The position numbers and the translations under genes are program-made. From a virus (taxonomy: Duplodnaviria; Caudoviricetes), in IMG/VR virus record IMGVR_UViG_3300031994_000035, positions 32,001 through 96,000 of that record: a DNA stretch of 64,000 bases. The stretch is one strand, 5' to 3'. The notes below the pieces were generated by a model. It saw nothing but the letters and a program-made list of their open reading frames with translations. It was not told the origin of the DNA and ran no database searches. This document shows positions 31,368 to 34,154 of the stretch, piece after piece. The number at the start of each line of letters is the position of its first letter. Positions within the stretch are counted from its first letter, which is position 1.

Positions 31368-31877
31368 ATGACAAAATCAAAAGCATTAAAATTGCTTAAA
31401 CAGCAATTAGAGAAAGATGATACAGTTCTTATTAGCTTATATGATATATATAAGAAAGAGCTTCGATATAATCAAGAAATCGTAGAGACAAGAGGTAAGA
31501 GCGACTTTCGTCAAGACCTACAGGATTTTGTAATAGAACAGGTGAAGGTTTCAGACCTCATCAAAAACTTGAAAAAAGAAGAGGTCAAACTTCAAGATAT
31601 TGTGATAGACGAAAATAAAATAGCAGAAGAAAAATGCTATATGCCGGAGCTTCGTCCATCATTGACTTACCAAGTGCTTGTGATGGAGATTGAAAAAATC
31701 AAAAAGCCACTAATGATTCCAGCCTACATTGTAGAATCTGTTAATGAACTTAGTGACTTCATACATAATCCTGAAAATAAGAAGATTCTCGACACTCACG
31801 AATATGCTATGAAGAAAATACTTCATGGTTATATCGCAAATGCTTTTACATCAGTAAATAACTCAATGTTCAGGTAA
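31368..31877 (+). CDS. Hypothetical protein, paralog of 4779-5192
   Basis: MTKSKALK N-terminus. Confidence 0.7.
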   Translation: MTKSKALKLLKQQLEKDDTVLISLYDIYKKELRYNQEIVETRGKSDFRQDLQDFVIEQVKVSDLIKNLKKEEVKLQDIVIDENKIAEEKCYMPELRPSLTYQVLVMEIEKIKKPLMIPAYIVESVNELSDFIHNPENKKILDTHEYAMKKILHGYIANAFTSVNNSMFR

Positions 31878-31893
31878 TTAAAAATTTGGAATT

Positions 31894-32388
31894 ATGGAAA
31901 ATTTTAAGACATTCAAAGAATTCAACTTTGACAAAAATGGATACACGGACCTTACAGGTGACAAACAAGAAATAAAGGATTTTCTTATAAAAAACAAAGA
32001 CTCTCTTCCTGTAAAGGCTGAAATAATGGCAAATGCAACAGAATCAGATACAAAGCTTGCAATGCTCTATAACATCTACGGTCTTGTAGACGACTTCGAA
32101 ATTATAGGTGACGACTTGTATATCCTGTTCTATCCTGTATATTTCACATACTACAAATATCATTTTACAAGACCTCTGATACTGAAACATTCCGAGACCG
32201 GGAAAAATCTACGTTTCGACAAAATGTTTTCATTCATAGTACCATACCTGTCAGACCTGCTTACTGGTGCTTTGATGAACGAAGGCTTTTCAAAAGACAA
32301 GGCCATAGAGTGGATGAATAAATCTACCAACAAGGAATACTTTAAAAAAATGACTGGTAGACAAACAGTGAATCCATATGAAAAGTAA
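31894..32388 (+). CDS. Hypothetical protein with MENFKTFKEF N-terminus
   Basis: Shared N-terminal motif. Confidence 0.65.
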   Translation: MENFKTFKEFNFDKNGYTDLTGDKQEIKDFLIKNKDSLPVKAEIMANATESDTKLAMLYNIYGLVDDFEIIGDDLYILFYPVYFTYYKYHFTRPLILKHSETGKNLRFDKMFSFIVPYLSDLLTGALMNEGFSKDKAIEWMNKSTNKEYFKKMTGRQTVNPYEK

Positions 32389-32544
32389 AAAGAAAAATTT
32401 GAAAAGTTTCGTAATATAGTTATTAAATGTTGTTTATTTAATTAAACTATAAAGTCAATAACTTGAAAAGATTTGACAGGAGTTCGAGTTCAAACTATAC
32501 TCCAATAAGTACATTGAAATAATGATAATTTTATACAGCTTGAC

Positions 32545-33188
32545 GGTCTGAAACCTAAGTTTAAATAATTTACTGGAAGAACGCCTGCTTTGTAAAGATG
32601 TAGATTGCAATAATTCAATCGTCTGATAAGTAGGATATTACAGCATCAAGTTGTATTTTAGAAATAATTTTGTGTGCATAGGCGAGAAATCCCTATGTAG
32701 AATCTCCTAAATTCGGTGGAAATCCTTATCCTGATATAGAATCCTAAAACGGTTATGGATATTTTCTATAAAGAGTAGTCGGGAAGAAAGCACTAACTAA
32801 TAATGTGTAAGGACTATACCGAGCGAAAATGAGATAAATACGATGCCAATAGGAGCATAGAAGTAGTATTACTGTTACGCAATATACAGAATCTTATAAT
32901 CGTGTAGACTGAAAGGGAGATACATAAAGTTGGAATTGAGATTTAAGCACCTTTGATGGAGAGGGACGTGAAATGATACTCAGCCTATATGGAATAAGTC
33001 ACGTTGAAATAGCTAAAATATATCTCTACTTGCAAGAATTTCAATATGGTAATATCAGTCAAAACCACAACAAACAATAAGGTTGAAAATCCGAGATTGT
33101 GTAAATCGAAAATGTAATTACTTGTCATTAAGTCTTGTAATGAATTGTTTGTCTATGGTAACATAGTGTGGTAGGGTTTCACAGACCC
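32545..33188 (+). ncRNA. Free-standing group I ribozyme-like RNA
   Basis: P2 32675-32699; P3 ATCTCCT/GGGAGAT; P4 TTCGGT/ACCGAG; P5 TCCTTA/TAAGGA; P7 GACTG(32907)/CAGTC(33056); P9.0 ACCACA/TGTGGT; GTAA tetraloop hairpin 33153-33166; closing stem 32545-32556/33173-33187. Confidence 0.8.
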
Positions 33189-33257
33189 ATTTTAAAACAG
33201 TACATTAAAATTTTATGATTTATAAATTCTGAGATGTAGAAGTTAGAATAAACAGAC

Positions 33258-34154
33258 ATGAAAGTAAAAACAAGAAAATTTCCAGAATGTAATTACAATG
33301 CGACATGGATTGACGGTAAAACATTTCGAATGGGAGATGGTTTTGCTAAAGAATTACCAGCAGACAAATCTGAATTTTATGACATTGCCCTTGGCACAAT
33401 GTGTAACCTAAATTGTCCGTTTTGTTATGCAGAAGCATCAAACAACGGTAAATTCTATGATGATATTTGTCAAAAGGCCGAATTGTTTTTTGGTAACATG
33501 TCAGAAAACGACAAGCCGTTTCAGGTGGCAATAGGAAGTTTGGGTGAACCGACAATACATCCGGATTTTATCAATTTTCTAAAAACAATTGCAAAATTTG
33601 ATATTGTTCCTAATTACACAACAAACGGAATAACATTAACAACAGAAAACGATTTCCGTGACGAATTGTTAAGTGTTACAGATAAATTATGTGGCGGTGT
33701 TGCCATAAGTACAAACGAATGGAATACAAAGATTCAAGAAACGTGGAGAAAGGCAGTAGAAAACTTATCATACTTTACAAAGACAAAGATAAATTTACAC
33801 TATGTTGTTTCAGATGAGAACTCTGTTGTTAGGTTTAAAGAAATTTATGACGAATATAAAGATAGAATCTTTTATTTTGTATTACTGCCAATGATGGATT
33901 CCGGACGTTGTACACAACGGTATAGCGAGAGCGCTTTTAAAAAATTGGAAACTATGTGGAATGATTTCGATGTTTCAAAAATATCATTTGGTGCTCATTT
34001 TTATCCATTATTGAAAGAAAGCAAAATAATTAATTGTTCATTGTACGAACCTGAATCATTTAGTAAAAATTTGATTCTTGACAATCCAATAACGATTACA
34101 AGAAGTAGTTTTGATTTAACAGTTTTAAAAACAATAGAATATGAAAAGAAATAA
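33258..34154 (+). CDS. Radical SAM enzyme
   Basis: CNLNCPFCY (CxxxCxxC), GEPT.HP, NYTTNG. Confidence 0.92.
   Translation: MKVKTRKFPECNYNATWIDGKTFRMGDGFAKELPADKSEFYDIALGTMCNLNCPFCYAEASNNGKFYDDICQKAELFFGNMSENDKPFQVAIGSLGEPTIHPDFINFLKTIAKFDIVPNYTTNGITLTTENDFRDELLSVTDKLCGGVAISTNEWNTKIQETWRKAVENLSYFTKTKINLHYVVSDENSVVRFKEIYDEYKDRIFYFVLLPMMDSGRCTQRYSESAFKKLETMWNDFDVSKISFGAHFYPLLKESKIINCSLYEPESFSKNLILDNPITITRSSFDLTVLKTIEYEKK

Follow-up and report, generated by a model that had tools for sequence, protein, structure and literature searches.

The subject of this work is a group I ribozyme-like RNA without a host gene, found in a window of 64,000 nucleotides (nt), by which we mean the whole stretch of DNA analysed, corresponding to bases 32001–96000 of the viral contig IMGVR_UViG_3300031994_000035 from IMG/VR. 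The source contig is 123.8 kb long and rated 49% complete, implying that it originates from a large phage; coordinates below are those of the window unless contig bases are named. Segment 32665–33175 of the + strand is a true group I core of the Azoarcus/Anabaena-like kind. Judging from its relatives, the conclusion is secure that the RNA descends from introns splitting tRNA genes in related rumen phages and that it has lost its gene. We further consider it probable that this exon-less descendant of a tRNA intron has become an RNA gene in its own right and is maintained for some purpose other than splicing.

The helices P2, P3, P4, P5, P6, P7, P8, P9.0, P9a and P9b were drawn by analogy with the Azoarcus intron, and the resulting 66 pairs were counted on an alignment of 22 sequences (A2), where 96.0% of the cells pair in the drawn structure compared with 33–43% in controls with slid partners; both sides are changed in 20/66 pairs, and 0/500 shuffles match any of the five measures. 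Covariation supports core helices in canonical order, including the P3/P7 pseudoknot, and the same is seen inside the 15 variant copies described below. An earlier reading of the letters without database searches (hereafter the sequence-only reading) had proposed the helices P2–P6, P7, P8 and P9.0 together with a GNRA-capped hairpin, and covariation across the 22 homologs bears this out; the strings GUGUAGACUG (32903–32912) and AUAUCAGUC (33053–33061) on which it relied are also correct. With the family profile, nhmmer recovers the window copy at E 4e-100 as the single copy in the contig. Homology of this copy begins near 32662 and not at 32545, and 32521–32664 has no homolog in the fetched loci, so that the extent of 640 nt previously proposed for the RNA is not supported. 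Rfam finds no family in the intergenic gap at the gathering score or at E up to 10, and in ten related loci it reports at the gathering score tRNAs only. A check against Intron_gpI (RF00028) had been suggested earlier; run with Rfam, it gives no match at E 10 and is uninformative, because L027, a bona fide intron of the same family lying in the anticodon loop of tRNA-Leu(UAA), is missed too, and for the same reason the silence of Rfam is not evidence against a group I identity. Probably, the long peripheral arms defeat the Rfam model. Of the tertiary contact elements, L2 GAAA and the GUAA-capped hairpin are present in the window copy, while the P8 receptor reads CAUAAAG and not CCUAAG, the latter form being kept in 10/15 orphans and 7/7 others.

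The origin of the RNA follows from its relatives. When contigs of four ruminant/sediment runs were aligned to the stretch (statements on these contigs refer to those four runs), hundreds of them matched only four blocks, 32670–32729, 32790–32835, 33027–33077 and 33145–33175, with unrelated sequence in between. Patterns derived from the blocks were used to retrieve relatives from IMG/VR and JGI metagenomes, and only one contig of a metagenome-assembled genome matched among 185,579 species genomes; the intron family is therefore essentially phage-borne, and in these collections it stems mostly from rumen samples. L015 and L016, retrieved with the pattern ATCCTAAAACGGTTATGGAT, were discarded as unrelated coding stretches, and L017, L022, L023, L026, L031 and L033, among 17 matches of a block-B 17-mer, as chance; the 14-mer TCGTGTAGACTGAA gave 41 matches, the real ones being only L024, L028, L029, L037 and L055. 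The relatives L018, L020, L021, L025, L027, L030 and L092 lie inside tRNA genes and carry canonical GAGACUG, and most matches of an unbiased scan with the P9b pattern are also located within tRNA genes. On their 5′ side these introns have a D-arm and the first half of an anticodon stem-loop, and on their 3′ side the second half of the anticodon stem with a T-arm of the GGTTCGA type; L027 and L019 split tRNA-Leu(UAA) between CUU and AA, i.e., at the 34/35 site, and L020 splits tRNA(CAU) directly after CAU. Their guides pair with the 5′ exon and vary with it, GUG being found with CAU (L020, L018), GAGU with ACUU (L027, L021) and GGA with UCU; their J6/7-P7 reads GUGUAGAGACUG and their J8/7-P7′ reads GAGACAGUCC, or UGUCAGUCC in L025. 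Occurrence of canonical homologs within tRNA genes indicates that the RNA is a tRNA-intron descendant rather than a separate invention. The sequence-only reading had itself named the outcome unfavourable to it, namely homologs with canonical GAGACU inside an ordinary gene and a decayed copy here: the first half is what was found, the genes being those of tRNAs, and the second is not, as the remodelled P7 is common to 15 copies and not private decay. Three members of the collection have peculiarities of their own: in L107 (approximately 1–250) an open reading frame (ORF) ending in ...GYIWKYKNV and resembling a homing endonuclease stands before the P9 part, L019 carries a 620-nt insert after P7 (2386–3004), and L103 has a canonical core seemingly in or before a protein gene, not a tRNA.

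What sets the window copy apart from the tRNA-borne introns is the site that binds guanosine. Its J6/7-P7 reads GUGUAGACUGAAA, with a shortened P7 strand GUAGACUGA in place of canonical GUAGAGACUGA; the claim that this region is 2 nt shorter than in other introns is thereby confirmed on the phage relatives. The deleted G-A, immediately ahead of GACUG, corresponds to the pair at the outer end of P7 and to the bulged A, both located on top of the pair that binds guanosine; we take them, from the Azoarcus and Tetrahymena crystal structures of 2004, to stack on the bound guanosine and to carry a metal-binding phosphate. In addition, the C partnering the deleted G is A (33061), J8/7 is of the short type, and an extra A-U pair extends P7 on the inner side. 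P7 covaries in the family (GACUG/CAGUC versus GGCCA/UGGUC). The G site therefore lacks its flanking pair and bulge and retains the guanosine-binding pair itself, G32907-C33060, a likeness to Azoarcus, in which exogenous G forms a triple with the P7 G-C pair according to a recent study (PMC13168695, Fig. 1).

The remodelling is shared. Fifteen distinct copies carry GUAGACUGAAA, none of them within a tRNA, in three or four flank contexts; besides the window copy they are L037, L024a, L028, L055, L073, L074, L076, L077, L079, L080, L084, L086, L088 and L089. Copies of the alpha class lie between complete tRNA genes and end with UAAA, without the terminal G; those of the beta class end with UAAG, after which comes a hairpin whose loop is CUCAU; the window copy and L037 end with UAGG, followed by GGGUUUCACA(G/A)ACCC and a U run. 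L076, starting 10 nt after one tRNA and ending 4 nt before the next, has neither P1 nor the terminal G, and the 10-nt spacing to the upstream tRNA leaves no room for P1. In the window copy the terminal G is present, G33175 aligning with the omega G of tRNA-borne relatives; the omega-G placed earlier at 33174 thus exists as a terminal G, and homology moves it by one position. For P1, no upstream guide partner able to form a helix with a U·G pair is conserved between the window copy and L037, and the 5′ splice site formerly proposed at U32646 finds no support in the same comparison, as CAU at 32644–32646 can pair with GUG(C), but such a match is expected by chance and is absent in L037. No interrupted gene with joinable exons is found around the core, as a self-splicing intron would have. 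The exon-less L024b keeps GAGACUG with the partner C already replaced by A, and looks like an intermediate. We infer the loss of splicing from the missing exons, the missing P1 and the rebuilt pocket. Separately, hairpins resembling a T-arm (GGTTCGAnTCC, 5-bp stem) were seen within P6 or P9 extensions of L024 (1716–1820), L024a, L076, L080, L088 and L089, one of them obtaining a weak tRNA score (25 bits) from Rfam.

The elements of the window copy are arranged as follows.

32473–32501, + strand: sigma-70-like promoter TTGACA-17-TATACT, 11/12 consensus matches, the best of the region, not conserved in relatives.
32508–32520, + strand: head motif of stable RNAs, AGTACATTGAAAT, with exact repeats in the contig.
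32521–32664, + strand: 5′ leader private to this copy, uncovered in two RNA runs.
32669–32676, + strand: former internal guide UUUGUGUG, immediately 5′ of P2, aligned with guides of tRNA-borne relatives.
32677–32697, + strand: P2 hairpin capped by a GAAA tetraloop; compensatory changes in 5 of its 8 pairs.
32702–32727, + strand: 5′ strand of P3, J3/4, 5′ strand of P4, J4/5 and 5′ strand of P5 (covariation).
32915–32921, 32818–32823 and 32809–32813, + strand: partner strands of P3, P4 and P5, respectively (covariation).
32728–32808, + strand: P5 extension, a variable part followed by conserved CACUAACUAAUAAUGUGU (32791–32808), from the alignment.
32809–32902, + strand: 3′ strands of P5 and P4, then P6 with a variable extension (P6 by covariation).
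32903–32914, + strand: J6/7 (UGUA), remodelled 5′ strand of P7 (GACUGA) and J7/3, compared with GUAGAGACUGAAC in relatives.
32915–32921, + strand: 3′ strand of P3 (covariation).
32923–33049, + strand: P8 with a long private insert; degenerate receptor half CAUAAAG at 32923–32929 versus CCUAAG (alignment).
33029–33036, + strand: palindrome CUUGCAAG in the 3′ side of P8 (alignment).
33050–33060, + strand: short form of J8/7 (UAAUA) and 3′ strand of P7 (UCAGUC), from the alignment.
33065–33171, + strand: 3′ domain with P9.0 (CCACA/UGUGG), P9a (ACAAACA/UGUUUGU with a variable insert) and P9b (CUAUG-GUAA-CAUAG), supported by covariation.
33172–33175, + strand: UAGG, with G33175 at the omega position, aligned with the terminal CAGG and UAGG of tRNA-borne introns.
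33174–33193, + strand: tail hairpin GGGUUU-CAC-AGACCC followed by AUUUU (folding).
33199–33211, + strand: second copy (12/13) of the motif AGTACATT(A)AAAT, ahead of the radical SAM gene at 33258–34154 (motif scan).

In the P5 extension the distal part is unalignable among copies and the final 18 nt are nearly invariant; a receptor-like hairpin UCCUAAAACGGUUAUGGA was noticed there by eye at 32742–32759. Covarying pairs of P6 include AUGAG/CUUAU, AUGGC/GCCAU, AUAUA/UAUAU and others. In tRNA-borne introns the 3′ exons begin directly after CAGG or UAGG.

The RNA occupies a gap of 869 nt (32389–33257) flanked by two genes of the + strand, an ORF of 164 amino acids (31894–32388), for which neither a Pfam match nor relatives in viral contigs were found, and the radical SAM gene (33258–34154). 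The + strand of the gap contains no ORF of at least 50 amino acids under code 11, code 4, TAG=Q or TAA=Q, and the idea of a recoded gene was abandoned after the frames with TGA=W, TAG=Q and TAA=Q all gave none. ARAGORN, run with and without introns, detects no tRNA halves beside the element; together with the ORF checks under four codes this agrees with the earlier statement that the RNA interrupts no tRNA, rRNA or ORF. The inner 500 nt of the gap have a G+C content of 0.33–0.36, matching the neighbouring genes, whereas ordinary spacers here have 0.19–0.27, and only the + strand folds better than its shuffles (z −3.6 versus −0.75 for the − strand). On its 3′ flank the core is followed by a hairpin, a U run and the start of the next gene. 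Nearly the whole stretch is contained in DNA runs from sheep gut; a blastn search with the gap gives zero matches among 50,697 phage records, and three contigs with an ortholog of the radical SAM gene contain only chance 14–20-mers of the gap, inside coding DNA. In the contig closest to window segment 31894–34154, L003 (3208–4897), the radical SAM gene is 91% identical, and a different upstream gene abuts it across a 64-nt spacer devoid of the group I RNA; given this different arrangement, the RNA and the ORF preceding it sit at a synteny break. The upstream gene is directly followed by an AT-rich element of some 75 nt (32392–32467), which recurs between genes with 72–77% identity at contig bases 101722–101800 and 74811–74876 and in other spacers. 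The phage also encodes a transfer-messenger RNA of its own (tmRNA; 89.7 bits) and 17 tRNAs arranged in an array (269–615 and 992–4242), among them an odd one whose anticodon is called with four bases (gaaa, 992–1066) and a tRNA(CAU) of 82 nt.

Signs of expression come from RNA libraries of cattle rumen. Contigs of the libraries X11 and X12 are 98–99% identical, with 1–2 differences, to 32927–33044, a part private to this copy, and the depth in both is 0 over flanking coding DNA. Segment 32521–32664 has no cover in two RNA runs, and we do not use this as proof of the 5′ end. The sequence at the head of the RNA, AGTACATTGAAAT, is present three times in the contig without a mismatch, each time on the + strand (window 60–72, window 32508–32520 and contig base 31743), with about 0.004 exact copies expected from length alone; the two others stand beside tRNA-Ala and upstream of tmRNA. 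L105 has three copies ahead of RNA genes, of which one precedes a further orphan group I core by 13 nt, and the motif may represent a start or processing signal for stable RNAs of the phage. This recurrence fits better than the target-site duplication considered for the 13-nt direct repeat 32508/33199, which was rejected. A boxA-like motif formerly read just upstream of the RNA has no match at ≤3/13 mismatches anywhere in the gap. At the opposite end, the tail of L037, GGGUUUCACAAACCC followed by U8, is scored as a terminator. The helix proposed to close the RNA between 32545–56 and 33173–87 exists as complementarity but is not supported as a closing element: its energy of −16 kcal/mol is equalled by 6% of shuffles and 7% of other genome windows, its 5′ partner is absent in the closest relative, L037, and folding of the full transcript gives a local tail hairpin instead.

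It is also conceivable that the RNA is still a ribozyme of changed behaviour, acting in trans through a free guide (for instance, on CAU tRNAs) or processing itself by hydrolysis at G33175 or by circle formation with a rebuilt guanosine site. This we regard as improbable. In its favour, G32907-C33060, J8/7, J4/5 and the GUG of the guide have been retained, as has the terminal G in the window copy. Loss of the G-A, however, which presumably stacks on guanosine and binds metal, should cripple both steps, and sister orphans do without the terminal G. UUUGUG of the guide can pair with CAUAAA at 2195–2200, in the anticodon loop of a tRNA(CAU), so the match to CAU/AAA reported by the sequence-only reading is arithmetically right; CAUAAA is however frequent as a hexamer, and ancestry among tRNA(CAU) introns, of which L020 is an example, accounts for the match. 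Joints seen only in RNA lead in relatives from omega to 7–16 nt before P2 (33175>32674), at a depth of up to 248 in X11; they fit intron circles of these relatives, and the intron family is probably active in vivo, but circle-like joints are not assignable to the variant copies. A joint across 32647–33175 is not listed in the RNA runs, which are represented by contigs only. Finally, the guide can base-pair with the tail of the same RNA, no wobble pair being involved.

This last relation concerns UUUGUG at 32669–32674 and CACAGA at 33180–33185, which is part of the tail hairpin and could take up the guide as an alternative to it. L037 has the same guide with CACAAA, the alpha class has CAUUG/CAAUG and AAAUU/AAUUU, and the beta class UAUGAG/CUCAUA; the register is constant in the three flank classes, one partner lying directly 5′ of P2 and the other a few nt past omega, the sequences differ between the classes, and in no copy does a U·G pair occur at the place of the splice site. 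Resting on the common register and the changing sequences, the guide-tail pairing may be treated as a lead. Another possible contact is an 8-mer at 33029–33036 in the 3′ side of P8, which is self-complementary and found at the same position in 35 members (e.g., L020, L019, L095, L109, L097 and L098), among tRNA-borne introns and orphans alike. It occurs as CUUGCAAG (30 copies), CUCGCGAG (2), CUUCGAAG, GUUAAC, CUGCGCAG and CUUUGAAG, the last pairing with itself via G·U; it stays self-complementary when changed and has no partner within the RNA, so that it may mediate a contact between two molecules.

Whether the RNA is maintained or merely persists depends on the pattern of its divergence. Of 190 core columns with strong conservation, 3–10 deviate from the consensus in the variant copies (5 in the window copy) and 4–12 in the tRNA-borne ones, and within the variant set compensatory changes keep the helices P2, P6, P8 and P9a; arms of P5, P6, P8 and P9 are unalignable between copies. 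A conserved core with unalignable arms argues for selection on the core, and the suggestion of the sequence-only reading that P7 reflects selection rather than decay gains from the fact that the remodelling is common to 15 exon-less copies whose cores show no greater divergence than those of introns in tRNA genes. The principal alternative is that of a stranded intron in slow decay, which looks intact because its gene was lost recently or because it recombines with working introns of co-infecting phages; we consider this possible and yet unlikely. In its favour, the lost parts are those needed for splicing only (exons, P1, the upper layer of the guanosine pocket and, in some copies, the terminal G), the P8 receptor of the window copy is degenerate, and spacers are tolerated in phage tRNA arrays; arms are moreover shared mosaically across types (L027/L024b in P6, L076/L024b in P8 and P9), which implies recombination within the family. 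Decay is difficult to reconcile with 15 copies that keep 180–187 of the 190 core positions in spite of unalignable peripheries, preserving helices via compensatory changes, with the same 2-nt deletion in at least three flank contexts despite the availability of canonical copies for conversion, with the compactness of phage genomes, from which 500–700 nt of dead RNA is expected to be lost, and with copy-specific sequence in RNA libraries.

Several observations weigh against an independent RNA gene kept for its own use. The similarity of the cores could be helped by recombination with working introns, with no selection acting on the orphans themselves, and the damaged P8 receptor of the window copy (C32924A and an extra A) could be early decay. 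The 15 variant copies may share ancestry; a FastTree built on core columns does not unite them in one clade, a tree that is not to be trusted owing to poorly aligned columns and mosaic arms. As these copies were found by a variant-specific pattern, 15 exon-less copies out of 15 are not an unbiased rate, and the orphan state is not strictly linked to the P7 deletion, because the orphans L105, L097 and L024b keep canonical P7. Contigs of the RNA libraries show neither ends nor strand and may come from a near-identical relative. The guide-tail duplex of the window copy (−6.2 kcal/mol, z −0.5) is no better than shuffles, such energies beating shuffles only in some alpha copies and not for the window copy, L037 or the beta class; local hairpins (−6.3 and −6.8 kcal/mol) are no better than shuffles either. 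Residual chemistry, such as 3′ hydrolysis or circle formation, is also possible, as the G-C pair, J8/7 and G33175 are kept.

Taken with these reservations, an independent RNA gene remains our preferred explanation, the conservation pattern and the signal in RNA libraries being the reasons to assume selection for its own use. The RNA would be transcribed alone, from a start no further upstream than the stable-RNA motif at 32508 to the hairpin and U run at 33174–33193; it would fold like the intron and no longer splice, the old guide UUUGUG being occupied by its own tail CACAGA via ordinary pairs, without the wobble that marks the site of cleavage. Selection would then act on a property of the folded RNA, as a scaffold, decoy or binding partner in the tRNA/stable-RNA system of the phage, and not on guanosine-dependent splicing. 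A more specific and rather speculative version, which we hold to be doubtful, sees a tRNA intron turned stable RNA that kept the guide and the guanosine pair and rebuilt the pocket, serving either as a trans-acting ribozyme on anticodon loops or as a decoy or scaffold in the contest between phage and host over tRNAs, possibly as a dimer formed via the P8 palindrome.

Among known systems the nearest are the IC3 introns, i.e., those of Azoarcus tRNA-Ile(CAU) and of cyanobacterial and plastid tRNA-Leu(UAA), which have in common with this RNA the order P2–P9 and J3/4-P4 AAAUUCGG, the GAAA loop of P2 facing (in relatives) the P8 receptor CCUAAG/UAUGG, the GNRA-capped P9 and the guide GUG beside P2; the phage relatives also sit at 34/35 of tRNA-Leu(UAA) (L027, L019) and after CAU (L020). 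In contrast to IC3 introns, the RNA has no exons, no P1, no 5′ splice site and no P7 pair with the bulged A, its J8/7 is 2 nt shorter, its length is about 510–530 nt as opposed to 205–250 nt owing to long P5, P6, P8 and P9 arms, and, in this copy, the P8 receptor is damaged and the RNA comes with a start motif of its own and a tail resembling a terminator. GIR1 of Didymium and Naegleria is likewise a non-splicing fold derived from group I, without a conventional P1, in which the stretch following the terminal G pairs with the 5′ part of the ribozyme; it resides, however, inside another intron ahead of the mRNA of a homing endonuclease, its core contains the P15 pseudoknot, and it makes a 3-nt lariat. 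No endonuclease gene was found near the RNA described here, and GIR1 is a functional analogy only. The allosteric ribozyme behind a c-di-GMP-II riboswitch of Clostridioides difficile is likewise a group I RNA that interrupts no conserved gene and serves a purpose other than its own removal from coding sequence; it has, however, a full catalytic core, splices and controls the ribosome-binding site of the downstream gene, whereas the ortholog of the radical SAM gene in L003, 91% identical, is without the element and sister copies lie between tRNAs. ROOL and GOLLD are ornate RNAs of 500–800 nt from phages and prophages, often located beside tRNA genes, ROOL having been first seen in rumen data; in distinction to them, our RNA has no Rfam match even at E 10, and its fold is plainly that of group I. 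In the part of the literature that was covered, no published description of exon-less group I RNAs of the tRNA type in phages was found.

Group I introns are textbook selfish ribozymes, and to our knowledge only few reuses of their fold have been recognized, GIR1 and the c-di-GMP-controlled ribozyme among them. The exon-less set from rumen phages keeps the fold and sheds exactly the parts that serve splicing, with tRNA-borne relatives available for comparison. Besides ROOL and GOLLD, they are a third large structured RNA that phages keep close to their tRNA genes; even as mere fossils, they would reveal a large intron family in phage tRNA genes that standard models miss. The succession from an intron in a tRNA to an orphan with an intact pocket and further to an orphan with a rebuilt one offers a natural series in which the disarming or repurposing of a ribozyme may be followed.

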